Notes under the pieces: model-generated
What the model was told of the DNA's origin: nothing
Seen by the model: the letters and a program-made list of their open reading frames with translations, nothing else
The model's database searches: none
Shown: positions 19,455 through 40,346 of the stretch, in pieces
Numbering within the stretch: the first letter of the stretch is position 1
Layout of the letters: every line of letters starts with the position of its first letter
Made by a program: the position numbers and the translations under genes
Assembly: GCA_020429185.1 (NCBI GenBank)
Contig: JAGQLO010000001.1
Location: 1,723-65,722, forward strand
Source of the DNA: Candidatus Doudnabacteria bacterium
GTDB taxonomy: Bacteria; Patescibacteriota; JABMPQ01; JAGQLO01
Reading direction: 5' to 3'
Length of the DNA stretch: 64,000 bases

Positions 19455-19468
19455 AACTCACAAATCCA

Positions 19469-19897: not shown

Positions 19898-19917
19898 GAG
19901 AACAACTAATCAATACA

Positions 19918-20307: not shown

Positions 20308-20310
20308 ACG

Positions 20311-20424
20311 CTAGCCTTGACGTTGCTTATGCTTTGGAACTTCACATACAACAACCACCCGACCTTTGCGGCGGATGACTTTGCATTTATCACACATCTT
20401 TTTAACGCTTGCGCGCACCTTCAT
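20311..20424 (-). CDS. rpmJ: 50S ribosomal protein L36 (37 aa). Not in the ORF track; found by manual translation of the minus strand.
   Basis: The reverse complement translates to [37 protein letters not shown], a zinc-ribbon L36. It sits in the canonical infA-rpmJ-rpsM order. Confidence 0.85.
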
Positions 20425-20443
20425 ACTCAATTCATTCTTCTAA

Positions 20444-20728: not shown

Positions 20729-20821
20729 GGAAGTAAAGTTGCACTAACACATCAAAGAAAGTACCCCACGAAGGAGCGAGAAAGAAATACCCGTTCCCAC
20801 GAAAAGGATACTTGCAAGATA

Positions 20822-22681
20822 CTACTGTTCATCTTCCGCAGTGTCAAGCACAACATCCACCTTTCCAGGCACACGCGGCACATGCTCTACCCAAAACGGC
20901 CAAAATGCCACACGAGCGGCAGCAACGCCGTATTGATCAAAAAGCAAATGCTGCACTTCTTCAGCCGTTTTTCCCTGTAACTGAGCGGAAATTCCCTCTT
21001 CAGGAAGTAGAACAACGACGTCACGATCCATCTGCACATCAAGTTCAAGCACCTCTTCAGTGGTATCGTAAGAAGCTAACGAGAACGTCACCCCTGAAAA
21101 TGTCTTGTCGATAAATGCACGCCCTTCAGGTAGCCTTGGTTGCAACTGTGCAAAAACAGTAGACCGCAAATCCTCTTCTCGATAGGCCAATGTTCTTGCG
21201 GTTACCAACAACTCAAGCTCAAAATCTTCGCGTGCATCTCCCACATCTCCAGTAGAACGCACTTCTATTACATCCGTTCGCAGCGCCTCTTCAAGTACAG
21301 CCTCACCTTCAGCAACCTGCGCACGCAACGACTCAGCTGCAATCGTAACCGCCTCCTCCTTCATGATTGCCACCGCCGCATCCATGTCCTGCTGAGAGAT
21401 AATTCGCTCACCAATTCCAGCATTCGTCCCACCTGTAAACGGTGTGACGCTTTTTCCTGTCATCTTCTCTTGAATAGCAGGCGCCAAACCTGGAATGGTA
21501 AAGGATGTGGGTTCCATATTGTAGTCAGAACCAGGTTGATCAGCCTCCACCTCAACTGTAATCGTTGTCGGAATCAACTCTCCTTCATCACTTACGTCCA
21601 TGCCAGGCACGACAGCATGTTCAATCAGACGAAAGAGTGTTCCATCTTTTGCAAGAAACCGCGTCGTCGCCACGAGTGGTTGCGGAGCCGCAGAATAAGC
21701 GTTTGTAATCGTCACCTCTCCACGTGCCTTTGTTCCCTCTTCTGTTGTGACACCTGTAGCAGCAAAAGAGCGTTTCGGACTCACCTCTTCTACTGCAATA
21801 GGAACACCAGGCACGACACCCGTTGTTGCGTCCATAGCAGAAGCGGAGGCAGAAAGCTGGACGCGCAACTCTTCTTCAAAAGGCTCTCGCTGTGGCTGCA
21901 CAGTAACGGTCGCAGAGGGAAGAACCCACAACAACACACCTCCACCAACAAGGACAGCAATAACCAAGGCGGCAATAACGGCAAAACGTGTCATTCGTGG
22001 CAGCAACGAAACCTTCTGAGGAGCTGGAGAAGACCGACGTAGCACAGAGGCTGATTGCGCGTGTCGTACAGAATGATCTTTCTTTCGTGAATCTTCCCGC
22101 ACAACAAGTTTTTCTTCAGTGGGTTCCACGACGTCCACATCGGAAGCTTCGTATACTCCCTTACTCGAAGTTGCCACTACATCAGAAACAACTGGATCAG
22201 GCAGCGGCGACATTTCAGAAACAACTTCCTGCTGATCAGCCTCATCCAGATGACGCTCTTCCGCCTCATCAACTTCTTCCAGGTCTGAAGCATCGTCTTG
22301 TACCTCATCCGAAACAGCTTTCACGGGAATAGAACGCATCGTAAAATCACGCGGCACTTGTGCTTCCGACTGTTCGCCCACCTCATCAGGAGAAGGAGCC
22401 TGCTCTTCTTCCACGGTTGGATCTAGCTCTTCCGGAACTTCGCTTTGGGCCGTCAATCCAGCCTCAGTAGCAAGATGGCGAATAACCGGATCGGATGTAA
22501 CCAAAGAAAGCTGCAACCCAAGCTTTTGGGACTCACGCTGCAGCAGCTTTAGATTGACAAGGCTCTGCGCCAACATTGAACCTCGCGGTAAGACGAGCAC
22601 AACATCGTCAGACTCCGCATGACGAAACCGATCCACGATATCGGTTATCTCATCTTCGATTTCTGAGTAAAGAAGTTCCAT
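20822..22681 (-). CDS. Hypothetical single-pass membrane protein: STAS-like N-domain, acidic linker, TM, about 365-aa extracytoplasmic domain
   Basis: The N-terminal segment (DVVLVLPRGSMLAQS..LVNLKLLQRESQKLGLQLSLV..DPVIRHLATEAGL) follows the STAS/SpoIIAA hydrophobic pattern. A TM helix lies at about residues 230-252. The gene sits immediately downstream of ftsA. Confidence 0.4.
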   Translation of the reverse strand: MELLYSEIEDEITDIVDRFRHAESDDVVLVLPRGSMLAQSLVNLKLLQRESQKLGLQLSLVTSDPVIRHLATEAGLTAQSEVPEELDPTVEEEQAPSPDEVGEQSEAQVPRDFTMRSIPVKAVSDEVQDDASDLEEVDEAEERHLDEADQQEVVSEMSPLPDPVVSDVVATSSKGVYEASDVDVVEPTEEKLVVREDSRKKDHSVRHAQSASVLRRSSPAPQKVSLLPRMTRFAVIAALVIAVLVGGGVLLWVLPSATVTVQPQREPFEEELRVQLSASASAMDATTGVVPGVPIAVEEVSPKRSFAATGVTTEEGTKARGEVTITNAYSAAPQPLVATTRFLAKDGTLFRLIEHAVVPGMDVSDEGELIPTTITVEVEADQPGSDYNMEPTSFTIPGLAPAIQEKMTGKSVTPFTGGTNAGIGERIISQQDMDAAVAIMKEEAVTIAAESLRAQVAEGEAVLEEALRTDVIEVRSTGDVGDAREDFELELLVTARTLAYREEDLRSTVFAQLQPRLPEGRAFIDKTFSGVTFSLASYDTTEEVLELDVQMDRDVVVLLPEEGISAQLQGKTAEEVQHLLFDQYGVAAARVAFWPFWVEHVPRVPGKVDVVLDTAEDEQ

Positions 22682-22685
22682 ACGA

Positions 22686-24053
22686 TTACGCTGTTTGCAG
22701 AAGACGAACGGCTCGTCGCACTACAGAAGAAAATTCATCCGAAGGCAACAACACTTCCCGAATCGCCTGAGAGGCAAGTCCAAGTGGCGTCACATCCTCC
22801 TGTCCCACAAGAAGTCCCGTCGAGTCACTCATCAGCACCACATCTTGTGGAGACATAAAGTGAATGTTTGGGGGCCGCGAGAACGGAAGGCGCTCAACGA
22901 AGTCAGGATCCATTAACACTTCTTTCATTCCTGGAAGCTTGGAACCTCCACCACAAAGCAATACACGACTTGGCAGAGGTTCTGTCTTTGAAAACTCTTC
23001 CAGAGCAAGAGCAACTCCTTCACGCCAGACCGAAAGATCGCCATCTACTTCGCGTCGAACACGCTCCGCTGACGAAGAAGGCAACATGTTTTCTGAATAC
23101 TTGATTTTGGTCTCTTCAGCCTCTTCAAACGGAAGGTCAAGCGCCTGTGACACACGCCGGGTAAACGCACGCCCGCCTATACCAAACATTTTCGTGCCCT
23201 CAATGACCCCACCACGCACAACTGCGACATCCGTTGTGCCACCACCCACATCAATAAAAATTGCGGAAAACTCCAACTGCTCTCCAACTCCCACAGAAGT
23301 CGCCACCGCATACGGCTCCGCTGTAACGGAGAGAAGATCAAGATCGAGTTGCTCAGCAATGCTTTCTAATGCACCAATATGCACCAACGGTGCATACGCA
23401 TTAAAGATAGAAAGAGCGACATCCTTTCCCTGGAAACCAACGGGTTGTGTGACGCGATATCCGTCGATGCGCACATCCACCACCGAACCCGTAATCAATC
23501 GCACATCGATACCCTGCTGACCTGTTTCACGGACGAGTTGTTGCTTCACTCGCTCAAGTGCACGCCACTGCACCTTATGCACGATGTTCTTCAACTCGGC
23601 TGCATCAATCTTCTGTTCTGGCTTCAATCGTTCATAGCTCACCGTGGTCGTCATTCCTTTTACGAGTTCACCTGCCATCCCTAACACCACTTGAGTTGGA
23701 CGCACTCCTGCTCGCTCGGAAGCCTCAAAAATGGCGCGCTCACAAACCTGTACAACAGCAGCAATATCTCCAACGGCTCCCGCATGCATCGCCCCTAGCG
23801 GCTGCGCCGCGCGACCCGATCCAATCACAACTCCTTCACCTGTCTCTTCATCCACTTCAAAGACCAAAGCCTTTACGACTTCGGTTCCAATATCTAGCGC
23901 GAGATACGATCCGTTTACCGGACCGCTCCGCTTGAACTTTCCAAATAAGGACACAGAAGAATGACAACGAATTGCGAGTGAAGTGTAGCAAACAACACGC
24001 AACAACATCTCTGGATAAAATCGACAGAAGGCAAGAGATTTCTGATCGAACAC
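22686..24053 (-). CDS. ftsA: Cell division protein FtsA (actin-like ATPase). The N-terminal boundary is uncertain and the real start is probably downstream of 24053.
   Basis: LALDIGT phosphate-1 motif, a DVGGGTTDVAV phosphate-2 motif followed by AEETKIKY, and a C-terminal amphipathic tail. Confidence 0.7.
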   Translation of the reverse strand: MFDQKSLAFCRFYPEMLLRVVCYTSLAIRCHSSVSLFGKFKRSGPVNGSYLALDIGTEVVKALVFEVDEETGEGVVIGSGRAAQPLGAMHAGAVGDIAAVVQVCERAIFEASERAGVRPTQVVLGMAGELVKGMTTTVSYERLKPEQKIDAAELKNIVHKVQWRALERVKQQLVRETGQQGIDVRLITGSVVDVRIDGYRVTQPVGFQGKDVALSIFNAYAPLVHIGALESIAEQLDLDLLSVTAEPYAVATSVGVGEQLEFSAIFIDVGGGTTDVAVVRGGVIEGTKMFGIGGRAFTRRVSQALDLPFEEAEETKIKYSENMLPSSSAERVRREVDGDLSVWREGVALALEEFSKTEPLPSRVLLCGGGSKLPGMKEVLMDPDFVERLPFSRPPNIHFMSPQDVVLMSDSTGLLVGQEDVTPLGLASQAIREVLLPSDEFSSVVRRAVRLLQTA

Positions 24054-24163
24054 TTTATGTCCTTCAAAGCCGTCCCATCACAGCACTACAGTCCAGAAAA
24101 AGTTGACAGCAAGTGAATTTCCTGTCATAAAAACCATATGATCGCCACATGGAAGGAGGAGCC

Positions 24164-24568
24164 ATGGCGAAGATCGACCTGCCGGAGACACCCGTTGTCT
24201 GGGTGCCGCCGGTCATTGTGCGTGAAGTGGCGGACTGGGACCTGCAACTGAGGTTCGGCGAGGCACAGAAGCCGGATCGCTTCAGTCAAGGCGTGTTCTG
24301 TCCGCTTCTGTCCCCGCTGCCGGACAGTCCCCGGGTCAGCCTACTGGTCGGACACGAGGCACTCCCGGTGGAGGGAGACGAGTGGTACCTTCTGATCATT
24401 CGAAATCCGCACCGCAATGAGATCGGTTTCGTGGCCACCTGGCAGCCGGGTACACGAAGCCTGATCATCTTGGAGCGGGAGCTGAACCTCGACGGCCCCA
24501 ACGGGTACATCCAACGGTTCCGCAGCATGTACCCCACGCAGCCCCCACGACCGTCCGCTCCGGCCTGA
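24164..24568 (+). CDS. Hypothetical protein (134 aa) encoded on a GC-rich island (about 63% GC). It is the only plus-strand gene in a roughly 14-kb minus-strand block.
   Basis: Strong SD GGAAGGAGGAG upstream of ATG(MAKIDL). The composition is clearly atypical for the locus. A weak terminator follows. Confidence 0.45.
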   Translation: MAKIDLPETPVVWVPPVIVREVADWDLQLRFGEAQKPDRFSQGVFCPLLSPLPDSPRVSLLVGHEALPVEGDEWYLLIIRNPHRNEIGFVATWQPGTRSLIILERELNLDGPNGYIQRFRSMYPTQPPRPSAPA

Positions 24569-24590
24569 ACCGCTGAGCACGGTCTTTTTT
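24569..24590 (+). terminator. Weak rho-independent terminator after the GC-rich ORF
   Basis: ACCG-ctgagca-CGGT followed by CTTTTTT. Confidence 0.25.
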
Positions 24591-24610
24591 CTTACCTAGG
24601 AACGGTCTCC

Positions 24611-26458
24611 CTAGGAACGTGATGCCAAAACCTCTTTCGCCTTCTCTCCAACGTATGCCTTGATACGGCGAATACCGGCAGAACTCGCCTGTTCTTTTGA
24701 AATTACAAACGCTCCGATTTCAGAGGTGTTCTCGACATGAGGACCTCCACAGACCTCCACAGAAAAATCTCCTACAGAATAGACTTTCACCTGATCACCG
24801 TATTTGTCTTCAAACAACCCAAGCGCTCCCTTTGCTCGAGCCTCTTCGAGTGACAGGGTTTCCCATGTCACCGGAAGATCACGTTCAATCACGTCGTTGA
24901 TAATCCGCTCTACCTCTGCAATCTGCTCAGGTGTCATCTTGTCAGGATGTGAAAAGTCGAATCGAACACGCTCAGGAGTAATGTTGCTTCCTTTCTGCTC
25001 GACATGGTCTCCAAGTACGTCACGCAACACCTTATGTAGCAAATGAGTTGCCGTGTGTCCCATTCGTGTTTCTGGTGTGTCCTCCGAAAGTCCGCCCGCA
25101 AACTTCTGTGCTGCCCCCTCACGCGACTTCGACTGATGCTGTTCAACATTCTGCTGGAACTCCTCTTCATTCACGCCGAATCCCATTTTCTCCGCCTCTT
25201 CAAATGTAAGCTCCAATGGGAATCCGTAGGTTTGATACAAGTCAAACACAAGATCTCCAGGCAGCGTTGGCTGCTTTGCTGAGCCAGCGATCAAGTCACT
25301 TCCAGCCGTCTGAGCGTGTTGTTGTAACTTCTCAATTTCCTTCTTCAAATGACGCAACCCGTTGTCGAGCGTCTTCTCAAACTTTTCTTCTTCTTTTCGC
25401 AGCTCCTCCAAAATAACTTCGCGATGCTGCTCCAATTCCGGATACACCCCCTCATACACGCCAAAGAAGACTTCCACAACTTCCTTCGACACATTCACTT
25501 CTTCTGGAATTTGTAATTTCGCCGCAAACCGAACAGCACGACGAATCAAACGTCGTAGAATGTAACCTTGGTCGACATTACTTGGACGAACCCCATCCCC
25601 CAACATAAACATGGCTGTCCGCAGGTGATCTGTCACCACACGCACCGCTTCTTCATCTTCCACTAGAGCTAGTTCCTTCACCTTGTTGTACGCATCGGCA
25701 AACAAATCCGTCTCAAAAATATGCGTTCGCCCCTGCAACGCCATCGCAATGCGCTCCAACCCCATTCCCGTGTCGACATTTTTTTGTGCGAGCGGCTTGA
25801 ACGAACCATCGTCAAGCTTTTCGTACTGCATGAACACGTTGTTCCAAATTTCCACAAAACGACCCGCCTCCGTGTCTGGACCATCGCCATTCAACGGCCC
25901 ATTACCACGATCATAAAAAATCTCCGTGTCCGGACCACATGGACCCGTCTTTCCTGGAGGTCCCCACCAGTTATCTTCTTTCCCCAGATAGAAAATGTGT
26001 GACTCTGGAACACCAAGAGATTTCCAAATCGAAGCCGATTCCTCATCACGCGGAGCGTCATTATCACCAGCAAACACAGTGACTGCCAGCTTTTCGATCG
26101 GAATATTGAGATACGCAGGAGACGTCAAAAACTCAAATGACCAACGAATCGACTCTTCCTTAAAGTAATCTCCCAACGACCAGTTTCCCAACATCTCGAA
26201 AAACGTGTCGTGCGTGTCATCTCCAACCTCTTCAATATCCTGAGTACGCACGCACTTCTGCACGTTGGCGAGTCGTTTTCCATCTGGATGTGCCTCTCCC
26301 ATCAGGTATGGCACCAATGGATGCATGCCAGCTGTCGTAAACAACACGGAAGGGTCATTTTCTGGGACAAGTGAAGCCGAAGCAATAATGGCGTGGCCAC
26401 GCTCTTTAAAGAAGTCAAGATACTTCTGTCGAATGTCTTTTGCGGAAAGTGATGTCAT
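24611..26458 (-). CDS. alaS: Alanine--tRNA ligase, short form (615 aa) lacking the C-terminal C-Ala/oligomerisation domain
   Basis: AlaRS catalytic core (KYLDFFKERGH ... FTTAGM) plus the editing-domain HTATHLLH motif. Confidence 0.9.
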   Translation of the reverse strand: MTSLSAKDIRQKYLDFFKERGHAIIASASLVPENDPSVLFTTAGMHPLVPYLMGEAHPDGKRLANVQKCVRTQDIEEVGDDTHDTFFEMLGNWSLGDYFKEESIRWSFEFLTSPAYLNIPIEKLAVTVFAGDNDAPRDEESASIWKSLGVPESHIFYLGKEDNWWGPPGKTGPCGPDTEIFYDRGNGPLNGDGPDTEAGRFVEIWNNVFMQYEKLDDGSFKPLAQKNVDTGMGLERIAMALQGRTHIFETDLFADAYNKVKELALVEDEEAVRVVTDHLRTAMFMLGDGVRPSNVDQGYILRRLIRRAVRFAAKLQIPEEVNVSKEVVEVFFGVYEGVYPELEQHREVILEELRKEEEKFEKTLDNGLRHLKKEIEKLQQHAQTAGSDLIAGSAKQPTLPGDLVFDLYQTYGFPLELTFEEAEKMGFGVNEEEFQQNVEQHQSKSREGAAQKFAGGLSEDTPETRMGHTATHLLHKVLRDVLGDHVEQKGSNITPERVRFDFSHPDKMTPEQIAEVERIINDVIERDLPVTWETLSLEEARAKGALGLFEDKYGDQVKVYSVGDFSVEVCGGPHVENTSEIGAFVISKEQASSAGIRRIKAYVGEKAKEVLASRS

Positions 26459-26498
26459 ACAAAAAGAGTACCCGCGCTACCACAGGAGTGCAACGGTA

Positions 26499-26777
26499 CT
26501 AATAGTCTTCTTCTACCTCAGGGTCATCCTGGGCCTCAGGCTCCTCTTCATCTCCTTCGATAGATTCCATAACGGCAAGACGCTCGTCTTCACGTTTTAA
26601 GCGATCGATCTGCGACTCGAGATCATTCACTTCACCATCAAGCAGCTCTTCTTTTCGCTGCAATTCCTTCAATTGCGTTCGAAGAGCCGTAAGTTCTTTT
26701 GAACGACGATCTAATTCGTCGTTCAACTCTTCAATTTCCTCTTGGCGTTGGCGAGCTGGATCAGAAAAGTCTGGCAT
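26499..26777 (-). CDS. Small acidic coiled-coil protein (hypothetical)
   Basis: Heptad-like E/K/L-rich sequence of 92 aa. Confidence 0.35.
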   Translation of the reverse strand: MPDFSDPARQRQEEIEELNDELDRRSKELTALRTQLKELQRKEELLDGEVNDLESQIDRLKREDERLAVMESIEGDEEEPEAQDDPEVEEDY

Positions 26778-26795
26778 AGATGGTAATGAATAACT

Positions 26796-27848
26796 CTAAT
26801 GTACCCTTCCACACCCAACAACGCGATCCCCTTCGTACAACACTGCTTCCTGTCCGGGTGTCACCGCACGCTGAGGAATAGAAAATTCCAACAACAGCTG
26901 GCCGTCTTGTAAAGAGCTCATCACCGCCGATTGAACCGGCTGACGATAGCGAAGCTGAACGTCGATCTGCTCAAATGAATCAGGCTCACCACCAATCCAA
27001 TGAAGTCTCTCGACAGAGGCGCTCGACACAAACAACTGCGAATCTCCCTGCACATTCGACACAAGAAGCTCATTTGTTTCCAAGCGCTTCCCAACCACAT
27101 ACCAAGGCCCATTTGGAAGCTCGATTCCCTTGCGCTGACCCAACGTATAAAACGGCAACCCATCATGCTGCCCAACAATATCGCCCGAAGACGTCACCAT
27201 GTTTCCTGGTGATTGAGGCAATCGCTCACGCAAAAACTGAGAGACATCAATGTCTCCCACAAAACACAACCCAACACTATCCTTCTTCGCAGCCGTCGAA
27301 AGGCGAAGACGCTCGGCCCGTTCACGAACCTCGGTCTTTCTAAGTTCGCCTAACGGAAACCGAATTCGCTGCAACATTTCGGTGGAAAGGCGACACAAAA
27401 AATATGACTGGTCTTTTTCTGGATCGATTCCACGAAGCAACTCTCCCCGCTCCGTCGTACGCGCATAGTGACCCGTTGCGACATGTTCAATACCAAGCCG
27501 ATCAGCGGCAGCAAGAAGCAATGGAAATTTCACGAACTCGTTACACCATACATCTGGGTTTGGTGTGAGGCCTTGCTGATACGATTTCAAAAACGGCTGC
27601 AAAACATGTTCATCATACGCAGGAGCGGCATCGATCACTTCAATACGAATACCTAGTTGAGCTGCAACGCGAATCGCATCCTGCCGATCTGTAGAAGCGG
27701 TACATCCGGACGCAACGGAGCCAGGAACATCGTGTGCCATCTGAAGATGCACACCAATAACCTCAAATCCCTCCTCAAGAAGAAGAGCTGCTGTCAGCGA
27801 GGAATCAACCCCACCCGACATTCCGACAATAATGCGTTTTGATGCCAT
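26796..27848 (-). CDS. mnmA: tRNA-specific 2-thiouridylase
   Basis: PP-loop GMSGGVDSS at the N-terminus. Confidence 0.9.
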   Translation of the reverse strand: MASKRIIVGMSGGVDSSLTAALLLEEGFEVIGVHLQMAHDVPGSVASGCTASTDRQDAIRVAAQLGIRIEVIDAAPAYDEHVLQPFLKSYQQGLTPNPDVWCNEFVKFPLLLAAADRLGIEHVATGHYARTTERGELLRGIDPEKDQSYFLCRLSTEMLQRIRFPLGELRKTEVRERAERLRLSTAAKKDSVGLCFVGDIDVSQFLRERLPQSPGNMVTSSGDIVGQHDGLPFYTLGQRKGIELPNGPWYVVGKRLETNELLVSNVQGDSQLFVSSASVERLHWIGGEPDSFEQIDVQLRYRQPVQSAVMSSLQDGQLLLEFSIPQRAVTPGQEAVLYEGDRVVGCGRVH

Positions 27849-27888
27849 GTGGCCGCAGCGTACGAGGCAGATCGCCTCACGTCAACAA

Positions 27889-28755
27889 CTACAAGACATC
27901 AGCGCCATCAGCCTCTGCAATCGTGATTTGCTGCTGTTTCGAACGCGCGTGCGGAGCTTCCACTTTCTCGCGACGAAATGCATCTTGCACACGACGTTTC
28001 ATTTCACGCTTAAAGGCCCAGTGCGCCTCCGGCTTCGTCTTCCCGAGAATAGAAATCGTCAACGCCTTCGCGTCGACATCCTTAACCCCCTGCACTCTCG
28101 GAACTTCAATCACGTCATCTGCGAATTCTTTCTCTGTCGCCATCCGCTCTCCGATGGCATCAATCATCGACTTAATCTTGTTGTAGTCTTCTTGAACATC
28201 TACCACCACATAAAAGTGCACCGCTGAAAAATCTTTTGTGTGATTACTTACAATCGTAATCTGACTATTCGGAATATGATGTTGCACTCCATCTAGATCG
28301 CGCAACACCGTACGTCGTAACGTAAACGACTCAACGCGTCCTGTGACCTCCTTTGCCTCAATCACATCCCCAACAGCAAACTGGTCTTCCAAAATGATGA
28401 ACATTCCATTAAAGAAGTCTTTCACCAAACTTTGAGCCCCAAATCCAACAGCGACACCAGCAATTCCAAATCCAGCAATAAGCGGACCAAGATCAATGTC
28501 CAACTCCCCTAAGACCAACAACAGCACAATGGCCCCCACAAGTGTAAGCGCGAGCTGTGAAAACACACGCGACAGCATGCGAATACGCTGCTCACGCTCT
28601 TTGTCATCGCGCTGACTCGCAATAGGAATCTGACGCATGGTGGCGCGAATAATACGCCTCGAAAACAAATTTGTGAGCCACGTCACCACAAGACCTCCCA
28701 AAAGAATGGCAAGAATGCGGAACCATGGCGATGTCAGAATGTGAGTTATATCCAT
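27889..28755 (-). CDS. Small-conductance mechanosensitive channel (MscS family)
   Basis: TM3 and beta-domain signature (LVKDFFNGMFIILEDQFAVGDVIE). Start set at the internal Met to avoid overlap with nth. Confidence 0.8.
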   Translation of the reverse strand: MDITHILTSPWFRILAILLGGLVVTWLTNLFSRRIIRATMRQIPIASQRDDKEREQRIRMLSRVFSQLALTLVGAIVLLLVLGELDIDLGPLIAGFGIAGVAVGFGAQSLVKDFFNGMFIILEDQFAVGDVIEAKEVTGRVESFTLRRTVLRDLDGVQHHIPNSQITIVSNHTKDFSAVHFYVVVDVQEDYNKIKSMIDAIGERMATEKEFADDVIEVPRVQGVKDVDAKALTISILGKTKPEAHWAFKREMKRRVQDAFRREKVEAPHARSKQQQITIAEADGADVL

Positions 28756-28796
28756 GTTGCTGTGTTCACTACCTGCGCAGAATAGCACAGACACCA

Positions 28797-29447
28797 TCAG
28801 ACTTCAGAACTCGGACACAAGTGATTCACAGGACATTCTTCGCACTTCGGCCGGCGCGCAATGCAAATGCGCCGACCATGAAAGACCAGCACATGCGCAA
28901 ATAACGTCCACTGTTCACGTGGAACCAACTTCATCATGACCTTCTCAATTTTGATGGGGTCTCGATGACGCGTAAATCCAAGCTTCCGAGTAATACGGGT
29001 TACATGTGTATCGACCGTAAATCCCTCCTGCTTGTCATACCAATCACCCAACACAACATTTGCCGTTTTCCGCGCAACTCCACTCAGCGTCACCAACTCC
29101 TCCATTTCATCTGGAATTCGCCCTTCATAGTGAGAAACAACGCGCTGCGCCATCCCAATCAGATTCTTCGCCTTGCTGCGATAAAACCCAGTCGAGTGAA
29201 TAATCCCTTCCAACTCACCCTGCTCTGCTTCTGCTAGTGCTTCAACAGAGGGATATCGTTCAAACAATGCTGGCGTCACAAGATTCACGCGCTTATCCGT
29301 ACATTGTGCTGACAAGATCACTGAAACGATCAACTCGTAGGCATTTGAAAAATTCAACTCGCAGTGAGCATCGGCATGACGTTCCGAAAGCAATCGAATG
29401 ACTTCAGGAACACGTTCTTTCAATGGCGGAACAGACGTACGTGGCAT
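28797..29447 (-). CDS. nth: Endonuclease III
   Basis: HhH-GPD motif (LSGVARKTANVVL) and the C-x6-C-x2-C-x5-C [4Fe-4S] cluster. Confidence 0.9.
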   Translation of the reverse strand: MPRTSVPPLKERVPEVIRLLSERHADAHCELNFSNAYELIVSVILSAQCTDKRVNLVTPALFERYPSVEALAEAEQGELEGIIHSTGFYRSKAKNLIGMAQRVVSHYEGRIPDEMEELVTLSGVARKTANVVLGDWYDKQEGFTVDTHVTRITRKLGFTRHRDPIKIEKVMMKLVPREQWTLFAHVLVFHGRRICIARRPKCEECPVNHLCPSSEV

Positions 29448-29456
29448 GCACCAAGC

Positions 29457-30791
29457 CTAGCGTAGGCCAGAGCGCACGGTAAAGGCATCTGGGACCGTGC
29501 GATCGATGTCTTTGAAATAACACGTACCAGACTGTTCATCACCGTTCTCATGTAACCGACAAAACAGCGCACCATAATTTGCTCCGTTGTCGCTTGTATA
29601 CGTAGACGCCCACCAAGGATTGGAGCCCAAATTGTCTTCTTCATCACGAATACTATGCCCGGCAAGCCCTTGTACAAACGCAAATGTTCTTCCCGGCTCA
29701 AGCGTAAGCGAGCTAAGCGTATGTTCGAGTGTTTGTGTTGCAAAGTCAGACATCAGATACGTGCGCGAGTAGGAATGTTCGTGTCCCGTCGCCACAATAG
29801 CTCCAGCTTCACGGCACGCGTCATACACTTCCCATCCCGTTTCATCTGACTTGCCGCCCACCTGCATCAAACGCTGATTTTTGTGCCAGTTACAGATCTT
29901 CCAATCGACATCCTGACTTGCAAGACCTGTTTGTAACGAAGCGAGATGATCCGAACCATATGTACCAATCCCAGAATTCACAATCAAAACGCCTTGATAC
30001 TGACACGTTTCGTTTACCCCAAGCTCACCTTCACAAAAAAGGCCTGGCGTTCGAGCAGCCCGCTCTTCAAGGAGTGCTTCATACGTCGACCACTCAGCAA
30101 CATCGTGATTTCCAATCGACACCACGTACGGAAACGTCGTTCCAAGCTTTTCATTGATCATGTCGTTCCAGGCACTGGCACCATTCGTTTCGTAACCAAG
30201 ATCACCCATATGCACAACCAAATCCGCCCCTTCGGAACGAACAAGATCAAGAACGGCACGTGAGTTCTGTGTCACCGACTGATCTCCCAAAAAAGCAACA
30301 AGGAAGTCAGGTGGCGGTGAAGGACGCACCCGTTCAAGATTCGCCGACGATATTCCAAGTCCTTTTGCAACCATGATGTCAAAAGCATCAGATGGCCGCC
30401 CCAAATAAGAACGCTGCAGACTCACAGGATCGATATACCACGCCTCGCCGTTCTGCTCGACTTGCAACACAATTCTTCCAGAAAGGCGTTCGCGAAGCGC
30501 AGCGTCCCCTTCCTCAGCCGATCCCTCGATCGGAACACGAGCTAAATCTGCATCTGAAATACCAAGCCCAAGGAGTCGCATCAGTCGAAACGCATCAGTA
30601 GGTCGTCCTAAGTAATACCGCGATCCAGTAGATGTAGAGACGTACCACGCTTCCCCATTCTGCTCGACATCAAGCAAAATCCTACCCGCAAGTCGTTCGC
30701 CCAACGACGTCGACGTTGTAGCCGCAGAAGCTGTTGAATGCCCCAGAAAAACCATGGCAAGAAGAAGGACTCCAAAGAAAAACGGTTTCAT
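29457..30791 (-). CDS. Secreted calcineurin-like metallophosphoesterase with two N-terminal copies of a 55-aa repeat module
   Basis: Signal peptide (MKPFFFGVLLLAMVFLGHSTASA); two repeats (GRILLxVEQNGEAWY..RxYLGRPxDAFxIM..GLGIS.A.L.R.P); C-terminal MPE motifs (GDLGY, GNHD, GHEH). Start set at MKPFFF (30791); the track extends to 30971. Confidence 0.6.
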   Translation of the reverse strand: MKPFFFGVLLLAMVFLGHSTASAATTSTSLGERLAGRILLDVEQNGEAWYVSTSTGSRYYLGRPTDAFRLMRLLGLGISDADLARVPIEGSAEEGDAALRERLSGRIVLQVEQNGEAWYIDPVSLQRSYLGRPSDAFDIMVAKGLGISSANLERVRPSPPPDFLVAFLGDQSVTQNSRAVLDLVRSEGADLVVHMGDLGYETNGASAWNDMINEKLGTTFPYVVSIGNHDVAEWSTYEALLEERAARTPGLFCEGELGVNETCQYQGVLIVNSGIGTYGSDHLASLQTGLASQDVDWKICNWHKNQRLMQVGGKSDETGWEVYDACREAGAIVATGHEHSYSRTYLMSDFATQTLEHTLSSLTLEPGRTFAFVQGLAGHSIRDEEDNLGSNPWWASTYTSDNGANYGALFCRLHENGDEQSGTCYFKDIDRTVPDAFTVRSGLR

Positions 30792-30870
30792 AGAAGGATG
30801 TTTTATGCACACACTATAGCAAAAGCGACCCCAGCAGGAGGTCGCTTCAAAGCTACAAGTTCCGAATCTC

Positions 30871-33612
30871 TTATCGTGCAACTTGAATACCACCGCTGAA
30901 TCCGGCGATATGCGAATCGAATACAGACAACTGCCGACCCACACTCGAGAACACTTGCGATGGCGCTGCAAGCCCAGCTCCAGGAGTCACAAGCAAGTCA
31001 GATGTTCCATCACGACTTGAGTCAACAATCAGTGCATGAACACCAACCCCCTTCTTTGCGGCATCATAGGCATAGAACGAGGCACGCTCCTCTCCGTCTT
31101 TTGTGAAAACGCGTACGTGCGGCTGCCCAATTTCTGGCGTGGTGACAATTTCCAACACTCCATCACCATCAAGATCTCCAAGTGAGAGATGTACTCCACC
31201 AATAAAGTTCTCGAACGCGAAGAACCCAGATTGCAGCTCTCCGGTGCCAGAGAAGACGTTCACATGCGCTCCCATCCCTGCGCGTGGTGCCAAGACAATT
31301 TCATCCTTTCGGTCACCAGAAACGTCTCCGACAGCTAGATGATATCCGCCCCGAAGTTGTTTGTTGTCAAAGGAGAAGAACGACGCAAGCTCTGTTCCTG
31401 TTCCCGTAAACACGCGCACATGAGGCGAACCACCAGAACTTGGCACGGTAATCAACTCATCCGTTCCGTCTCCATTCGTGTCACCAGAACGAACCAAGAC
31501 ACCGCCACGAAACTGCTCATCGTAGGCAAAAAAACTTGCACGCTGGATTCCTGATCCAGAAAAGACTCGAACATGTGGACCTCCTGCCGCCATCGGCGAC
31601 ACCACAATTTCTTCAACAGCATCTCCATCGATATCTGCAAGCTCAAGATGTGTTCCTCCACGGAATTCAGAAGAGAAGGCCATAAAGACATGCTCCTGCG
31701 TTCCATCCATCGAGAACACGCGCACTTCTGGAGCAGCGCCAGGACCTTGCACAGCAACAATTTCATCAAATCCATCACCATCTACATCTCCAACTTGAAC
31801 TTCGAGTCCTGCATGACTCGACGAATCAAACGCAAAGAAACTGTCTACCGTTTTCCAAGTAGAATCTTTCACGACAACCTGTGGCCCACCCCCAGCACCC
31901 GGCGTGAATACATAAAGAGAAGACTCCTGCATGGCTGGCAGTGGCTGACCAGCAAGCGCCAGCACAGCATAGGAAGTCATCAATGCTGTTCCGTCCAGTC
32001 CATCTATCCAAGCAAACGAGCCATTCTCCTGCTGCAATGCAAGCATGAAATGAATAGGCGTCTTATTGTTCTTTTGCCAGTCCATTGGATCTTCGCCAAG
32101 CGCATAGATGGCCTGCACGGCCCACGCTGTAGAAGCAACATTGGCAGCATAACCAGACTCGTAGGCAAATCCTCCATCTGGCTTTTGCTGCTGTACCAAG
32201 AACGTCCGAGCATCCCTCAGTGCACTAGACACGTTCTTGAGACCCCCATGGTCCCGATACAACACAAGTGCCTGAATAGCAGCGGCAGTTGTGTCGGTAT
32301 CGCTCGAACCACCAACGGTAAAGGCATACCCACCATCCACGTTCTGATGCTCTAACAACATCTTAATTCCATCTACAACAAGTGGATCCGCTGCCGACTC
32401 TTTTGCTGCCAATAATGCGATCACGCCAAATACATCATCATTCACAAGTGCCACATCTCCAATCTGTCCCGATCCTGAATGACGACGAATCGGGCTCACC
32501 CAATCCTGTCCTTCCCAGTTATGAGGATCCCCACCTGCGGCCACCACAGCAAGAACCTGACGCTCCCAATCCAGTACCGTTGCCCCTTCACCTGGAACAA
32601 CAGCCCCGATCATCTTTGCAACCGATTTTGAAGAAGACCCAACAGAATCAAGTGACCGACCTCCAGCAGCGAGCGCCATACCTGCCCAAGATGTAGCCCC
32701 AGGCGTTTCAATCACATCTCCACCCACGGACGCTTGCTCCTGTAAGAACTGTAATCCACGCGAAAGCGCCTGCGTTTGCTGTCGAGGCAACGAATCAACA
32801 AACTCGGCGTTTCGAGCGTAGACCTGTAACGGCGTTGCCGCACTCCGTGTATCAGATGTCCGTTCTGCGATCACACGAAAACTTCCTGCAAACGACGGAG
32901 TAAATGAAACAGTTCCGTCTGTTCCCGTCATGAATATCTCAGTATCAACCAACACTGTTGCCTCGTTTGCTGGTTCATACGCATGACTCTCATCGTCGTA
33001 CACCAGAACAGTTGCTGTCAGTGAATCTCCAACCAATACCTCGTTCGTAGAGAGCTCAACACTCAAAGGCGAAGAAGGCCATCCGCCCAAGGTGAGAAGA
33101 AGTTCATCTCCTTCGGCCAATGTGTGGTCCGCAAGACCATCCATGGGTGAAACGCCATTCACACGATATAACCAGAACAACGATTCTGTTTGTGATTGAC
33201 CAGCAACCTCAGAAAGGAATAGGCCAAAATCTGTATCTTGCACCGCATAGTCAAACCCCCACCATGTCGCTGCCGTATCAAGAGCACACAATGCCACACC
33301 ACCCTCAAGAGTGTGCTGCACGCCAACAGCGTCGGTAATGACACACGTCTCCGGAACGGTCACAAGCGTATCGACAACAGTGGCGTCCGGCGTCTCCACA
33401 CGAACAGTTGCTGTCGTTGTCACGGCCGCCACTCCACGATCGCGAGGAGCCAGCAGTACAACTGCACAAGCCGCCACCGCAAGCAGAACAAGAACAGCGA
33501 CTACAAGCCGGATACGCCAATCACCCAAAACTGAGCGCCAGGCTGCCACCGATGAAAACGAGAGAGGTAGAGACATACAGCATTGAAATGACGAGTGCCA
33601 ATCGAACGTCAC
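30871..33612 (-). CDS. Large cell-surface protein: TM anchor, a prenyltransferase/squalene-oxidase-like alpha/alpha-toroid repeat region, and an about 7-bladed FG-GAP beta-propeller
   Basis: The toroid repeats (QxxDGGF/W) lie in the middle of the protein. The C-terminal half carries repeated FG-GAP units (VGDVDGDGFDEIVxxxxxGxxPxVRVFSGxG...FFAY). No CxEQ thioester motif was seen. Confidence 0.6.
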   Translation of the reverse strand: MTFDWHSSFQCCMSLPLSFSSVAAWRSVLGDWRIRLVVAVLVLLAVAACAVVLLAPRDRGVAAVTTTATVRVETPDATVVDTLVTVPETCVITDAVGVQHTLEGGVALCALDTAATWWGFDYAVQDTDFGLFLSEVAGQSQTESLFWLYRVNGVSPMDGLADHTLAEGDELLLTLGGWPSSPLSVELSTNEVLVGDSLTATVLVYDDESHAYEPANEATVLVDTEIFMTGTDGTVSFTPSFAGSFRVIAERTSDTRSAATPLQVYARNAEFVDSLPRQQTQALSRGLQFLQEQASVGGDVIETPGATSWAGMALAAGGRSLDSVGSSSKSVAKMIGAVVPGEGATVLDWERQVLAVVAAGGDPHNWEGQDWVSPIRRHSGSGQIGDVALVNDDVFGVIALLAAKESAADPLVVDGIKMLLEHQNVDGGYAFTVGGSSDTDTTAAAIQALVLYRDHGGLKNVSSALRDARTFLVQQQKPDGGFAYESGYAANVASTAWAVQAIYALGEDPMDWQKNNKTPIHFMLALQQENGSFAWIDGLDGTALMTSYAVLALAGQPLPAMQESSLYVFTPGAGGGPQVVVKDSTWKTVDSFFAFDSSSHAGLEVQVGDVDGDGFDEIVAVQGPGAAPEVRVFSMDGTQEHVFMAFSSEFRGGTHLELADIDGDAVEEIVVSPMAAGGPHVRVFSGSGIQRASFFAYDEQFRGGVLVRSGDTNGDGTDELITVPSSGGSPHVRVFTGTGTELASFFSFDNKQLRGGYHLAVGDVSGDRKDEIVLAPRAGMGAHVNVFSGTGELQSGFFAFENFIGGVHLSLGDLDGDGVLEIVTTPEIGQPHVRVFTKDGEERASFYAYDAAKKGVGVHALIVDSSRDGTSDLLVTPGAGLAAPSQVFSSVGRQLSVFDSHIAGFSGGIQVAR

Positions 33613-33643
33613 ATCGTTGCAAGCTCACTCATCTGGGTCAAGA

Positions 33644-34525
33644 CTACAAAGGCGAAGACTGATACCGCCACTCAATTTGGTCACCATCATTCACTGTTTG
33701 CGCAGAAATCCCACGCGACGCAAACGCACCATTCAGATAGAACGTCCAATACAGTCCAGCAGCTTCATTGTTTGCGACGCCATTGATCGATTCAACAAAG
33801 CTCCCCATGCCTGCAAATGGTTTCGTTACAAATACAAGTCCGGTTGCAGAGCGCATCACCGACTCAACGGTTGTACCCTGTGTCGTTGTCACTGTATACG
33901 CACCTCCGCCCGGCCCAGAAATAGTCAGTCGCACAGAAATCTCCTGCTTCTCTTCTTTCGGCGCAGGCGAAGCTGGCGTCTCTTTTGGGGCCGTGTCCTT
34001 CCTAGGGGCAGGTGTTTCAGTAGGCTCAGGCTCTGGAGTAGGAGTCTCACTCGAAATCGCATTACCCTCAGTAATACGTTCAGTTTCTAAAGGTGTCGAC
34101 TGTTCACCAGGCTCAGGCGAAGTTGTACCAGACGCAGGCGCCCCAAAAGACTCTAACGAATCAACAGATCCAACATCGTTCGAGACAACTCCAGAACCCT
34201 CATTTACAGGAGAAACGGAGTGCGATGAACGAGTTGCCTTAGCCTCCGGTTCAAGCTCCACAACCGTAAGAGAGCTCACAGCCATTGGCTCGACTTGTTC
34301 ATTCTCATGTTTATGACCAACACGCACATCCTCCGGTCCTCTAGCAGCTTCCTCAACAGACAATGTTTCAACAAGCGCAGCCGAATGATCAGAGCTTCCT
34401 ACACGAATTCGATAGGCACCAACGAGCAATGCAATAAGAATCAAAACAGAAAGCACCAAAACAACCTGCACCCACGGCTGCGGAACCGCGAATCTCTTTG
34501 ACGATTGTGGTCGAAGAAGTGGCAT
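33644..34525 (-). CDS. DUF4430-domain protein with TM anchor and a P/T/E-rich linker
   Basis: The C-terminal about 90 aa (VRLTISGPGGG ... GLYWTFYLNGAFA ... DGDQIEWRY) matches the DUF4430 pattern, the transcobalamin beta-domain-like fold. Confidence 0.5.
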   Translation of the reverse strand: MPLLRPQSSKRFAVPQPWVQVVLVLSVLILIALLVGAYRIRVGSSDHSAALVETLSVEEAARGPEDVRVGHKHENEQVEPMAVSSLTVVELEPEAKATRSSHSVSPVNEGSGVVSNDVGSVDSLESFGAPASGTTSPEPGEQSTPLETERITEGNAISSETPTPEPEPTETPAPRKDTAPKETPASPAPKEEKQEISVRLTISGPGGGAYTVTTTQGTTVESVMRSATGLVFVTKPFAGMGSFVESINGVANNEAAGLYWTFYLNGAFASRGISAQTVNDGDQIEWRYQSSPL

Positions 34526-34610
34526 AACGAGCTATGGTACCCACTCACCAGCGTCGAAACAATCCCGCGCAACATTCCACTGGGGAAAACACTGCCAACA
34601 ACAAGCCATA

Positions 34611-35891
34611 TCATGCATCCAATTCCTCAGAAGAAGCATCTGTAATGAAACGCTTCTGGAATCCGAGCCCTGGAATATCTTGCTTCTTCTGGATCTGCAT
34701 AAGAGAACCTCGACGCACAACCATTTCACCATAGCGATCATTCAAAAGATCACATGCTGCCAACGCAGATTCCATACGATGCGCATCTTTCATAAAGAGT
34801 TGTTGCTGCTCAGCACCCCACTCTAAATTTGAAACAGTAACCCCAACCAATCGCACACGATCCAACAAAAACACAGGTTGAAATAGTTCTTTAACCTGCC
34901 CATAAATCGCGTACCCATCTGAAAGAGGCCGCGACAACGTCACACGTCGACCTTCAGAATGAAACGACTGATAGCGAATACGAATAGAAATAGTGCGACC
35001 TCGCGTCTGCTTACGGCGCAACCTCCTACCCACCTTCTCTGAAAGATGAAGAAAAGTTGCAAGTAGCGCCGCACGGTTAGACGTAGGTTGAATCGTGCGC
35101 TGATGCCCCATCGACTTTTCATCTTTCATGGTATGAAACGACACAACCTGGTCGGAACCCTGCCCAAATGCCACCCCCTTTAACCATCGTGCAGCATGAG
35201 ATCCAAACGAACGCACTAATACATCGGGTGGAATTTCTTGTAATTGAGAAAATGTACGAATTCCAAGACGATGTAGTCTCTTAGAAATCCTTGGACCAAT
35301 ACCACACACATCTGTAAGACGAACCGAACGAATCACGCTCACAGCCCGCTCTGGCGTGATCAAAGTAAGCCCATCCGGCTTTTTCATGTCCGAAGCAAGT
35401 TTCGCAAGAACTTTATTAGGAGCAACGCCAATGGAACACGTCACCCACTCCCCAACCTCCTCTTGAATGCGGTGCTTTAAACGTAATGCGAGTTGTGTCA
35501 CACCACCAAAACGCGAGGCCGTGTCTGTAATATCAATAAACGCTTCATCTGCACTAAACACTTCAACGTTCGGAGAAAACTCCTGATAAATCTCAATGAG
35601 TTGTTTTGTGACATGGGAATACATCGCAAAAGTCGGAGGAACAATTTTCACCTGAGGAAACTCTGCTAAAAGACGATGCGAAGGACTAGGAACCTTAACC
35701 CCTAATTGTTTCGCTTCAACAGAGGCAGTAACCACAACACCTCCATGTCCTTTTCCACCGATGGCAATAGGCACTCCGCGCAGTCGCGGATTCGCCTGCT
35801 GCTCAAGCGTGGCAAAATACGAATTCATGTCGACATGAAGAATCTGTCGAGAACCAGAGGTGTTGGTGTGTTGATCTAGACCGAACGACAT
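34611..35891 (-). CDS. dinB: DNA polymerase IV (Y-family translesion polymerase)
   Basis: ILHVDMNSYFA N-terminus. Start set at MSFGL, preceded by a GGGAGG SD. SOS context. Confidence 0.85.
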   Translation of the reverse strand: MSFGLDQHTNTSGSRQILHVDMNSYFATLEQQANPRLRGVPIAIGGKGHGGVVVTASVEAKQLGVKVPSPSHRLLAEFPQVKIVPPTFAMYSHVTKQLIEIYQEFSPNVEVFSADEAFIDITDTASRFGGVTQLALRLKHRIQEEVGEWVTCSIGVAPNKVLAKLASDMKKPDGLTLITPERAVSVIRSVRLTDVCGIGPRISKRLHRLGIRTFSQLQEIPPDVLVRSFGSHAARWLKGVAFGQGSDQVVSFHTMKDEKSMGHQRTIQPTSNRAALLATFLHLSEKVGRRLRRKQTRGRTISIRIRYQSFHSEGRRVTLSRPLSDGYAIYGQVKELFQPVFLLDRVRLVGVTVSNLEWGAEQQQLFMKDAHRMESALAACDLLNDRYGEMVVRRGSLMQIQKKQDIPGLGFQKRFITDASSEELDA

Positions 35892-35906
35892 ACCTCCCAC
35901 AAACAA

Positions 35907-35936
35907 AAGGCAGAGGTCATCTGACCTCTGCCTTTG
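35907..35936 (-). terminator. Rho-independent terminator (14-bp stem) between doxX and dinB
   Basis: AAAGGCAGAGGTCA-TC-TGACCTCTGCCTTT. On the minus strand it is followed by TTTTGTTTGTG, and the dinB SD follows directly. Confidence 0.45.
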
Positions 35937-35952
35937 AAACAGAAATGTCGAG

Positions 35953-36447
35953 TTATCCAGCTAACAACTGAATCCAACGTTTGTCCTTGGCCCAAGCCGA
36001 GGAAATCAATAACTTGTCGAGACCGCACACTGAACCAGCCCCACCAGCCATAAACAATGCAAATACGAGCATGTACACCACGTGTTCGTCGATCAAGAAG
36101 GAGTGCTCGAATGGATACCCTGAAAGGTAGTAAAAGAGCATCAACACAAATCCCCAAAATGCTGAAAAGCGCGTAAAGAATCCAAAAACTAATGCCAGCC
36201 CAACAAGAGTAAGTCCTAACATATTCAACCAATCGACCGCCGCATTTCCGGCCATCCAAGAGAACCAGGAGGCGAAGGGCCCTTCGAGATGCGAAAGATA
36301 TCCTGTTGCAGACCAACCACCTTCGGTAAAAAGCTTGTCGAGACCAGCGTAAAGCAATACCCATCCAAGGGAGACCCTGAGAGCAACAAGCCAGAATCGG
36401 GAAACCATCGTACGACCCTTCCCACCGGAAGAAGCTGTTTGTTTCAT
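35953..36447 (-). CDS. DoxX-family membrane protein
   Basis: DoxX-like 4-TM protein (VALRVSLGWVLLYAGLDKL ...). Confidence 0.6.
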   Translation of the reverse strand: MKQTASSGGKGRTMVSRFWLVALRVSLGWVLLYAGLDKLFTEGGWSATGYLSHLEGPFASWFSWMAGNAAVDWLNMLGLTLVGLALVFGFFTRFSAFWGFVLMLFYYLSGYPFEHSFLIDEHVVYMLVFALFMAGGAGSVCGLDKLLISSAWAKDKRWIQLLAG

Positions 36448-36624
36448 ACAAAGAAGTGAAGCGACAAACAAAACATAAGCAGTATACTCCTCCTTCAAAG
36501 GATTGTGCGAACAACATGCACATACAGGACATAATTGTCGGAGAACAGCGGGAAACGCCCCGGCATGAGCGCCTCCCGCCGACCCCCGACAGGGTCAAGC
36601 GTAATCCACGAAGATCGATCTCAC

Positions 36625-36891
36625 TTACTCAACGTACAGATCAACCAACTTCCAGGCGAGAGATCCCGTATCAAACGAAAGCTTGAAAAATGCTTCTTCG
36701 TTCGAGGCGGCAAAGTGATACACCCGATCACGTCCCTGACGTTCCTGATAAACAAGATTTACTTTATTGACGGGATACGTACGACCTTCCCACTTAAACA
36801 CCTGAGGACGAACTTTATCTCCATTAAAGAGAGCGGAAACAGATACCGGAGAATCGATTTTTGCGTGCATAAAGAGTAATGAATGAAGCAA
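36625..36891 (-). CDS. Hypothetical small protein (88 aa) in the SOS cassette
   Basis: Non-repetitive ORF between lexA and doxX with no recognisable motif. It may be SOS-regulated. Confidence 0.3.
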   Translation of the reverse strand: MLHSLLFMHAKIDSPVSVSALFNGDKVRPQVFKWEGRTYPVNKVNLVYQERQGRDRVYHFAASNEEAFFKLSFDTGSLAWKLVDLYVE

Positions 36892-37166
36892 AGAGAGATC
36901 ACTTATTGTAGAACAATCTTTTCGAGCCGGTCGTTAACTCGAATTTGAATTCCATGAAGGGAATGAATCTGACGAGTTAACCCACGCACAGGACATCGAT
37001 CTGTACATCCTCCATCATCTGCATGCATGTAATAACAGATGTCATTCAGAGAGGAGATGGCGTGAATCTTTTTTTGTTCGAGATAGCTCATACATCGTGG
37101 GATTAGTGGGATGGATGGAGCCACTCAGTGCCGGGGCGTATCAATTGAGGAAGAAGAGTTACCTAC

Positions 37167-37793
37167 CTAGTCATAGGCGCGTGTCACCGCTACAACCTTT
37201 CCTTGAATAGTCCATTCGGAGTCAGGGTAAATATCTGGGTAATCAGGATTTTCCGCTTTGAGATAAGCAACGCCATCTTTCATCATGAAGCGTTTCACTG
37301 TGGTCTCACCATCATCGAGCAGAGCCACCACAATGTCCCCATGAGAAGGTTGCACTCCCTGGCGAACCAACACACGATCATCTTCGAGAATGCCCGCGTC
37401 ACGCATACTCTCTCCACGGACTCGCAACAGAAATGTATCTTGAAATCCTCCAACAAGATCTGCAGGCAATGTAATGTTGTCTTCAATATTTTCATCAGCG
37501 AGAACAGGAGTTCCGGCAACAACATCACCAACAAGTGGCACTGATACTGTGTCGCTCGAAAGTGACTCGCCGAGCGTATTCAATACCTCAATACCACGTG
37601 CAGAGGAGTCACGACGGATGTAGCCACCTTCTTCCAAACGTCGCAACAACTTTGCCACAGAATTCTTAGAAGAAACTCCGATAGCAGTTGCCATTTGCGA
37701 AAACGTGGGCGGAACACGTCGTTCGCGAATCTCTTCGATAATGAACTCGAGGAGATGGCGTTGTTTTGGCGTGAGGTCTGACATGTGACTCAT
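37167..37793 (-). CDS. lexA: LexA repressor
   Basis: N-terminal winged HTH; S24 peptidase with the Ser (GESM) / Lys (VKRF) dyad. Confidence 0.9.
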   Translation of the reverse strand: MSHMSDLTPKQRHLLEFIIEEIRERRVPPTFSQMATAIGVSSKNSVAKLLRRLEEGGYIRRDSSARGIEVLNTLGESLSSDTVSVPLVGDVVAGTPVLADENIEDNITLPADLVGGFQDTFLLRVRGESMRDAGILEDDRVLVRQGVQPSHGDIVVALLDDGETTVKRFMMKDGVAYLKAENPDYPDIYPDSEWTIQGKVVAVTRAYD

Positions 37794-37827
37794 CCGTCGT
37801 TAGTAATTCCTCGTACATTTCAAAGGT

Positions 37828-37839
37828 AAACGATCGTTC
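37828..37839. promoter_or_regulatory. Candidate LexA (Cheo-like) box upstream of lexA
   Basis: GAACGATCGTTT / AAACGATCGTTC near-palindrome (GAAC-N4-GTTy) about 35 bp upstream of the lexA start codon. Confidence 0.3.
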
Positions 37840-37888
37840 ACCTATGGTCAACACCGATTATCCACAAAAGAAAAAGCCTGACACAAGG

Positions 37889-38419: not shown

Positions 38420-38507
38420 GGGATTCCCCCTCCTCAATAATCCAAGGTTCGTAGAACTACCAAAGCAAAAAGGAGGGGAAAGTCAATCCCACTCCTTTAA
38501 GACACTG

Positions 38508-40325: not shown

Positions 40326-40346
40326 GACTCTAGACTAGCAAATAGA

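Follow-up and report, generated by a model that had tools for sequence, protein, structure and literature searches.

Two secreted proteins encoded in a 64-kb stretch of DNA (hereafter the window, positions 1..64000) carry, directly behind their signal peptides, a pair of copies of one repeat module. None of the libraries searched has a name for the module, which belongs to none of the known families against which it was compared. To judge from its sequence context, the functional unit is an obligate pair rather than a single copy, and this pair very probably acts as an autonomous cassette for binding or targeting. Our confidence in that general class is the sum of the figures given to three narrower readings, in which the pair holds on to the producer's own envelope, adheres to a host cell or docks onto another protein. 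We favor the own-envelope reading, with a probability of about 0.5: the pair would retain exported proteins, non-covalently, on the envelope of the cell that produced them.

A module pair shared by two secreted proteins

The first protein, p1, is a secreted metallophosphoesterase of 444 aa (window 29457..30791, minus strand), and the second, p2, is a secreted protein of 307 aa (49823..50746, plus strand); both were defined by their open reading frames and translations. Read from sequence, both have the features of Sec signal peptides of the SPase I type, namely a positive n-region, a hydrophobic h-region, an AxA-type cleavage site and no lipobox cysteine. The signal peptide of p1 spans aa 1-23 (30723..30791, minus strand; MKPFFFGVLLLAMVFLGHSTASA, followed by A) and is cleaved after ASA, while that of p2 spans aa 1-27 (49823..49903, plus strand; MKRSKILLTGIPIAAALLFCFNWSVSA, followed by E) and is cleaved after VSA. 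In p1 the signal peptide is followed by the module pair and a Metallophos domain, and in p2 by the module pair and a C-terminal domain.

The original prediction placed two N-terminal copies of the same module in each protein, and both the alignment of the four copies and a profile made independently of the window bear this out. Copy 1 of p1 covers aa 29-88 (30528..30707, minus strand; domain E 4.9e-28 with the independent profile) and copy 2 covers aa 98-157 (30321..30500, minus strand; E 2.7e-26). In p2, copy 1 covers aa 32-91 (49916..50095, plus strand; E 1.6e-28) and copy 2 covers aa 102-161 (50126..50305, plus strand; E 1.7e-29). Linkers of 9-10 aa separate the copies of each pair. The unit had been described as 55 aa long; its actual length is about 60 aa, with a period of 69-70 aa. 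The distance between the two pairs, estimated earlier at about 19 kb, was measured at 19.2 kb.

The two carriers had been called otherwise unrelated, and their C-terminal parts agree with this description, with Metallophos (PF00149) in p1 versus a probable lamin-tail-like domain in p2. The calcineurin-like phosphoesterase domain of p1 has a Pfam envelope of aa 178-341 (29769..30260, minus strand; PF00149, E 8.4e-9, 36.6 bits against a cut-off of 21.5), and the catalytic region runs beyond this envelope to the C-terminus. At full length, p1 is 100% identical to the NCBI protein 'metallophosphoesterase [Candidatus Doudnabacteria bacterium]'; on this basis, the window is part of a metagenome-assembled genome of the Doudnabacteria, which belong to the ultra-small Patescibacteria (CPR). 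The catalytic domain of p1 shares about 50-55% identity with homologues that lack the module and come from many phyla, and PF00149 was found in the homologues uniformly. In other phyla, these homologues have no extra domain, or carry LRR, FG-GAP or cadherin-like domains, and SLH once (P0435); the complete p1 architecture was found in only four matches of the p1 homologue search. The last 145 aa of p2 gave no Pfam match at E<=1, the LTD model (PF00932) included. When p2 was compared by hhalign with an LTD alignment made from module-bearing relatives, aa 183-276 (50369..50650, plus strand) matched with a probability of 78% and an E value of 1.9e-5, while the Pfam LTD model itself remained silent. 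The C-terminal domain of p2 is thus probably a diverged beta-sandwich of the lamin-tail-domain type.

A gap-free alignment of the four copies shows 50-60% identity and 22 positions at which all of them agree. A six-frame search of the window, using a profile from non-window relatives only, recovered exactly four copies in 64 kb, the next match having an E value of 0.12; the question of further occurrences, as far as the window is concerned, was thereby answered with these four. DNA identity between copies is 53-63%, and identity at third codon positions is 0.27-0.47. This divergence argues that the copies are old duplicates held by selection at the protein level, and not a recent duplication or an assembly artefact. 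No observation favors the alternative that the repeats stem from chance similarity, low-complexity sequence or faulty assembly, and we consider its probability negligible: the independent profile gave E values of 1e-26 to 1e-29 and thousands of homologues exist. An assembly artefact is further ruled out by the third-codon divergence and by the finding of an identical p2, with its flanks and the same neighbors lepA and murJ, on five independent metagenome contigs.

Family membership, size and taxonomic range

Membership in a named family was judged by an HMM match over the repeats at or above the curated cut-off in Pfam-A 2025 or NCBIfam 20.0. The repeats of p1 and p2 had no match in either library at E<=1, and no Pfam match to the repeats reached threshold in 115 representatives, 79 genomic ORFs or 42 isolated pairs, the last searched at E<=10. 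What appeared on the module was sub-threshold Pfam noise (NPBW, DUF4785_2nd, SH3_15), together with sub-threshold matches of the alpha-lytic protease prodomain in 7/42 isolated pairs, the best at E 0.018. SLH (PF00395) matched in none of the module-bearing proteins scanned, LysM (PF01476) gave no Pfam match, and the repeat does not belong to the SH3b/GW modules; across 236 sequences, none of the LysM, SH3b/GW, CWB2 and PG_binding_1 models matched the module at its curated threshold. A search of PDB sequences with the four-copy profile returned the N-terminus of Rpb5 (E 0.015), a chance match that was gone when the profile of 42 pair sequences was used; the sole match of the latter was IF-2, at E 1.2. 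Homologues are called 'hypothetical protein' in their source records or are named after the partner domain, and full-text literature searches with motif strings and with CPR surface or secretome domains returned nothing on the module. The original prediction could not assign the module to a named family, and this assessment stands: Pfam-A and NCBIfam gave no match at their curated cut-offs, and no PDB sequence match was significant.

The family is large. An exhaustive HMMER scan of 1.84 billion representatives clustered at 50% identity yielded 3,685 clusters at E<=1e-3, of which 2,543 reached E<=1e-30. A match to a well-described family had been named as the outcome that would lower the novelty of the module, and the searches of Pfam-A and NCBIfam gave none. 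Named members are almost all Patescibacteria (Patescibacteria group, Parcubacteria, Falkow-, Uhr- and Doudnabacteria). A pattern scan with the four-copy alignment, covering one genome per GTDB species, found 135 relatives, among whose record titles are Patescibacteria, Uhr-, Falkow-, Kerfeld- and Kuenenbacteria and Parcubacteria/Paceibacterota. We conclude that the family is essentially confined to Patescibacteria. The size of the family, its near-confinement to one lineage and the obligate pair as its functional unit had all escaped the first reading of the sequence.

Some records carry other titles. Of 79 module loci, 28 are titled 'uncultured Gammaproteobacteria bacterium' and come from TPA co-assembly MAGs (L007, L009, L013, L018, L050 and others), and single odd labels (Atribacterota, Lysobacteraceae, Thermoplasmatota) stand on short contigs (records L044 and L047, protein P0311). 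We consider all these titles unreliable. Over 4.1 kb, the 'Gammaproteobacteria' locus L050 aligns with a Paceibacterota locus at 75% nucleotide identity; for L037 and L064, the matching stretches of 2-3 kb lie in loci of Falkow- and Kuenenbacteria. A wider range, as the 'Gammaproteobacteria' titles would imply, was rejected because several such loci, together with their flanks, match loci titled Patescibacteria over 2-4 kb. Module genes also occur side by side, three in a Falkowbacteria locus (L027, DOZJ01000002.1) and two each in L062, L042 and L024, which points to local expansion of paralogues.

The pair as a unit

Exactly two copies were found in 148 of the 150 best representatives. These had been ranked by total score, which favors two-copy proteins, a bias offset by the sample of genome loci: with a single-copy pattern in species-representative genomes, 84/85 module ORFs at 79 loci had two copies. 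The pair starts at a median residue of 27, and it lies directly behind the signal peptide in 142/150 representatives and in 78/81 complete genomic ORFs. In 8/150 representatives, P0104 and P0185 among them, it lies within the protein or at the C-terminus, which argues against an N-terminal propeptide or sorting signal. A heuristic scan found an N-terminal K/R and hydrophobic run in 136/150 representatives. Lipobox and LPXTG motifs were found in 0/150 each, and a C-terminal hydrophobic run in 1/150.

Across the family, the linker between the two copies is either short (0-13 aa; both window proteins belong here) or about 59 aa long. The latter form, present in about half of the relatives (e.g., P0094-P0099), is a calcium-binding TSP3_bac segment (DxDxDG). 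The corresponding Pfam model, PF18884 (bacterial TSP3 repeat), was found in 36/115 and 13/79 relatives and is absent from p1 and p2.

Two copies from different proteins agree at about 60% of residues, and about 25 positions are nearly invariant; the conserved residues include E15, W21, Y22, R30, Y31, R35 and D38. Copies of one protein are barely more similar to each other (0.63 versus 0.60-0.62 between proteins). The position of a held-out copy, 1 or 2, could be predicted with an accuracy of 89%, by small margins, and classifiers trained on the top representatives gave no consistent position call for the window copies. Positional specialization is modest and may depend on lineage. The two positions differ in charge: a basic copy 2 follows an acidic or neutral copy 1, with median pI values of 6.4 for copy 1 versus 8.3 for copy 2 family-wide, and of 6.05 and 8.54 in p1 and 4.6 and 8.38 in p2.

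Predicted structure

A single copy modeled alone reached a pLDDT of 73. The p2 pair (aa 28-165), modeled with the 42-sequence alignment, reached a pLDDT of 88.5 and a pTM of 0.80; the high pTM suggests that the two copies pack into one compact, two-lobed body. Each module is predicted to be an alpha/beta unit of about 60 aa, with the order helix, three strands, helix, strand and short helix.

A Foldseek comparison of the model with PDB and BFVD gave nothing significant; EccB5 ranked second. Among the nearest known systems are the oligomeric wall-binding domains of two phage lysins, the LysIME-EF1 CBD (6ist) and the Lys170 CBD (7d55), and the PlyCB-like repeats of EccB1 (3x3m). The EccB1 repeats consist of a four-stranded sheet and two helices and have been weakly likened to the wall-binding PlyCB (PMC4769845), and the LysIME-EF1 CBD likewise has a four-stranded sheet and two helices (PMC7098653); they act as repeats or tetramers (PMC4769845; PMC7098653). 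We treat the likeness of the module to EccB1 and LysIME-EF1 as a lead, and not as evidence of membership.

Partner domains and genomic surroundings

The domains fused to the pair are very diverse, and all types are extracytoplasmic. Among the 115 representatives, 47 partner families were found, including CAP (9), Trypsin_2 (5) and Peptidase_M23 (3), as well as Fib_succ_major, DJ-1, fn3, Transglut_core, GH10, SNase, Peptidase_C25, purple acid phosphatase and PG_binding_1. The 79 genomic ORFs added NAGPA (13), CAP (10), Peptidase_C39_2 (8), SpoIID, PA14, Big_2 and others, and short proteins carried cupredoxin, SH3b, LTD or DKNYY. In some proteins SH3b or PG_binding_1 stands alongside the pair as a separate domain. 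The proposal that the module has a shared targeting or binding function gains strong support from this architecture, in which one pair is joined to dozens of mutually unrelated extracytoplasmic domains across thousands of proteins.

Nearly all long ORFs of the window lie on the minus strand, with p2 among the very few plus-strand genes, and no tRNA gene was found in the 64 kb. Immediately upstream of p1 lies a 913-aa protein (30871..33612, minus strand) that combines DUF4430, a prenyltransferase-like alpha/alpha toroid segment and FG-GAP repeats, an unusual architecture for a surface protein; it is preceded by a second DUF4430 protein (33644..34525, minus strand). The gene for p2 is wedged between lepA (47954..49750) and murJ (50812..52401). 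Next to murJ, upstream of two glycosyltransferase genes, is a DUF4012 protein of 687 aa (52405..54468, minus strand). The surroundings of p2 look like an envelope-biogenesis neighborhood.

Proposed function of the pair

We propose that p1 and p2 are exported by Sec, which would leave the obligate pair at the mature N-terminus. The pair would be a portable cassette, fused to extracytoplasmic domains that have to remain at the cell. These comprise hydrolases for scavenging (the p1 phosphoesterase is one), proteases, nucleases, CAP and NAGPA domains, a cupredoxin as electron carrier, and simple binders, of which the LTD-like domain of p2 is an example. The cassette would bind a conserved envelope component non-covalently, and this component may be peptidoglycan, a wall-associated polymer or an S-layer. 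In a single-membrane cell, for proteins with no lipid, transmembrane or sortase anchor, the pair would keep its cargo from diffusing away. This implies that the p1 phosphoesterase would act at the cell surface, and not in the cytoplasm or in free solution.

An own-envelope target is suggested by the conservation of the pair across lineages with presumably different hosts, by the cupredoxin fusions, which make little sense away from the producer's membrane, and by a partner repertoire parallel to the diverse one of SLH, CWB2 and LysM proteins in Firmicutes. We also counted in its favor the peptidoglycan and division functions encoded in the window (MurJ and an FtsQ-type POTRA domain) and the occurrence elsewhere of the p1-type catalytic domain with other surface modules. 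Other observations count against it. Phage lysins often borrow the wall-binding domains of their hosts, so that a match among viruses would be expected, and a search of IMG/VR viral contigs with two short patterns did not find the module. Many teichoic-acid binders are strongly basic, and the pair, overall, is not. The SH3b or PG_binding_1 domains beside the pair would be partly redundant if both bound the wall. At the one locus concerned, the cupredoxin fusion P0278 has no membrane redox partner in its neighborhood.

An alternative that we regard as unlikely is that the pair is an adhesin for the surface of a host or prey, which docks enzymes and binders onto the foreign cell and delivers hydrolases to its envelope. 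Patescibacteria, the lineage to which the family is confined, are largely episymbionts, and many of the partners are hydrolases that could be turned against a host surface (M23, trypsin, C25, GH10, SNase, NAGPA). Host-recognition modules are usually variable, however, and the pair keeps about 60% identity and about 25 near-invariant positions across Doudna-, Uhr-, Falkow-, Kerfeld- and Kuenenbacteria and Parcubacteria, whose hosts presumably differ; nor does an electron carrier of the cupredoxin type make much sense on a foreign cell. Very high conservation would suit a conserved protein partner, and slightly less probable again than an adhesin is a docking device resembling cohesin-dockerin, in which the pair plugs exoproteins onto a scaffold protein, an S-layer lattice or a pilus rather than a glycan. 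The strict two-copy rule with the predicted packing into one unit, the charge asymmetry between copies and the calcium-binding linker in about half of the relatives would all fit such a device. Against it, no candidate receptor is known, module genes have no recurrent neighbor in the window or at the inspected loci, and neither sequence nor fold resembles dockerins or cohesins. Docking also overlaps with the own-envelope reading, as both amount to envelope retention and differ in ligand class only.

It is improbable that the pair is instead a pro-domain, an intramolecular chaperone or inhibitor, or a secondary signal for export or sorting that serves during secretion only or is then cut off. 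Its usual place directly behind the signal peptide would suit such a role, as would the many protease and hydrolase partners, whose classes often carry pro-domains. But a pro-domain normally goes with a single catalytic family, and the same pair precedes the non-enzymes cupredoxin, SH3b, LTD and fn3; its internal or C-terminal position in some representatives, and the sub-threshold level of the alpha-lytic protease prodomain matches, speak against it as well.

A further possibility, which we put forward tentatively and with somewhat less confidence than the own-envelope reading, is that of a surface-display system specific to Patescibacteria. It would consist of a fold without a solved relative, active only as a two-copy, charge-asymmetric unit that recognizes a conserved envelope ligand found in these ultra-small bacteria alone, and it would mark a large share of their surface proteome, as a counterpart of SLH that arose independently.

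Significance and comparison with known systems

Patescibacteria are abundant, almost all uncultivated, and dependent on their surface for scavenging and host attachment, and to our knowledge their envelope chemistry is essentially unknown. The cassette tags thousands of exported proteins, and its easily recognized sequence could serve to predict, from metagenomes, which proteins of Patescibacteria make up their surface proteome. The pair itself, at about 135 aa, is a small, well-folded and expressible probe for the envelope component that it would bind. Since no significantly similar structure has been solved, the module is a candidate for a new Pfam family and a target for structural genomics. 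We see it as a solid, large and uncharacterized family with a clear experimental handle, and not as a mechanistic surprise.

Several known systems resemble the module in part. Dockerin type I is a duplicated short unit that attaches many enzymes to one receptor, by analogy as the module might, and it binds calcium, as does the TSP3_bac segment often found between module copies. Dockerins, however, are C-terminal and built of EF-hand-like loops of about 22 residues; they share neither sequence nor fold with the module, for which no cohesin-like partner is known. LysM, SH3b/GW, CWB2 and PG_binding_1 provide a functional analogy, as promiscuous modules that retain secreted hydrolases non-covalently at the envelope. 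Their architecture differs: LysM is a beta-alpha-alpha-beta unit of about 45 aa, versus the predicted alpha-beta-beta-beta-alpha-beta-alpha order and about 60 aa of the module, and SH3b/GW has an SH3-type profile and a five-stranded barrel.

In organization, the module is like SLH (PF00395). Both are units of about 55-60 aa that occur in a fixed, small tandem number, with copies that fold together (in the module, by prediction), and both usually follow a signal peptide and are attached, in single-membrane bacteria, to a wide variety of exoenzymes. A further link is the p1-esterase homologue that carries SLH. The two differ in that there is no sequence match between them and that the module pair is predicted to comprise two alpha/beta copies, whereas SLH has three all-helical copies forming a pseudo-trimer. 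In Firmicutes, SLH together with its wall polymer marks a share of the surface proteome. We rate the domain family as new and its functional kind, a promiscuous surface-retention module, as already known.
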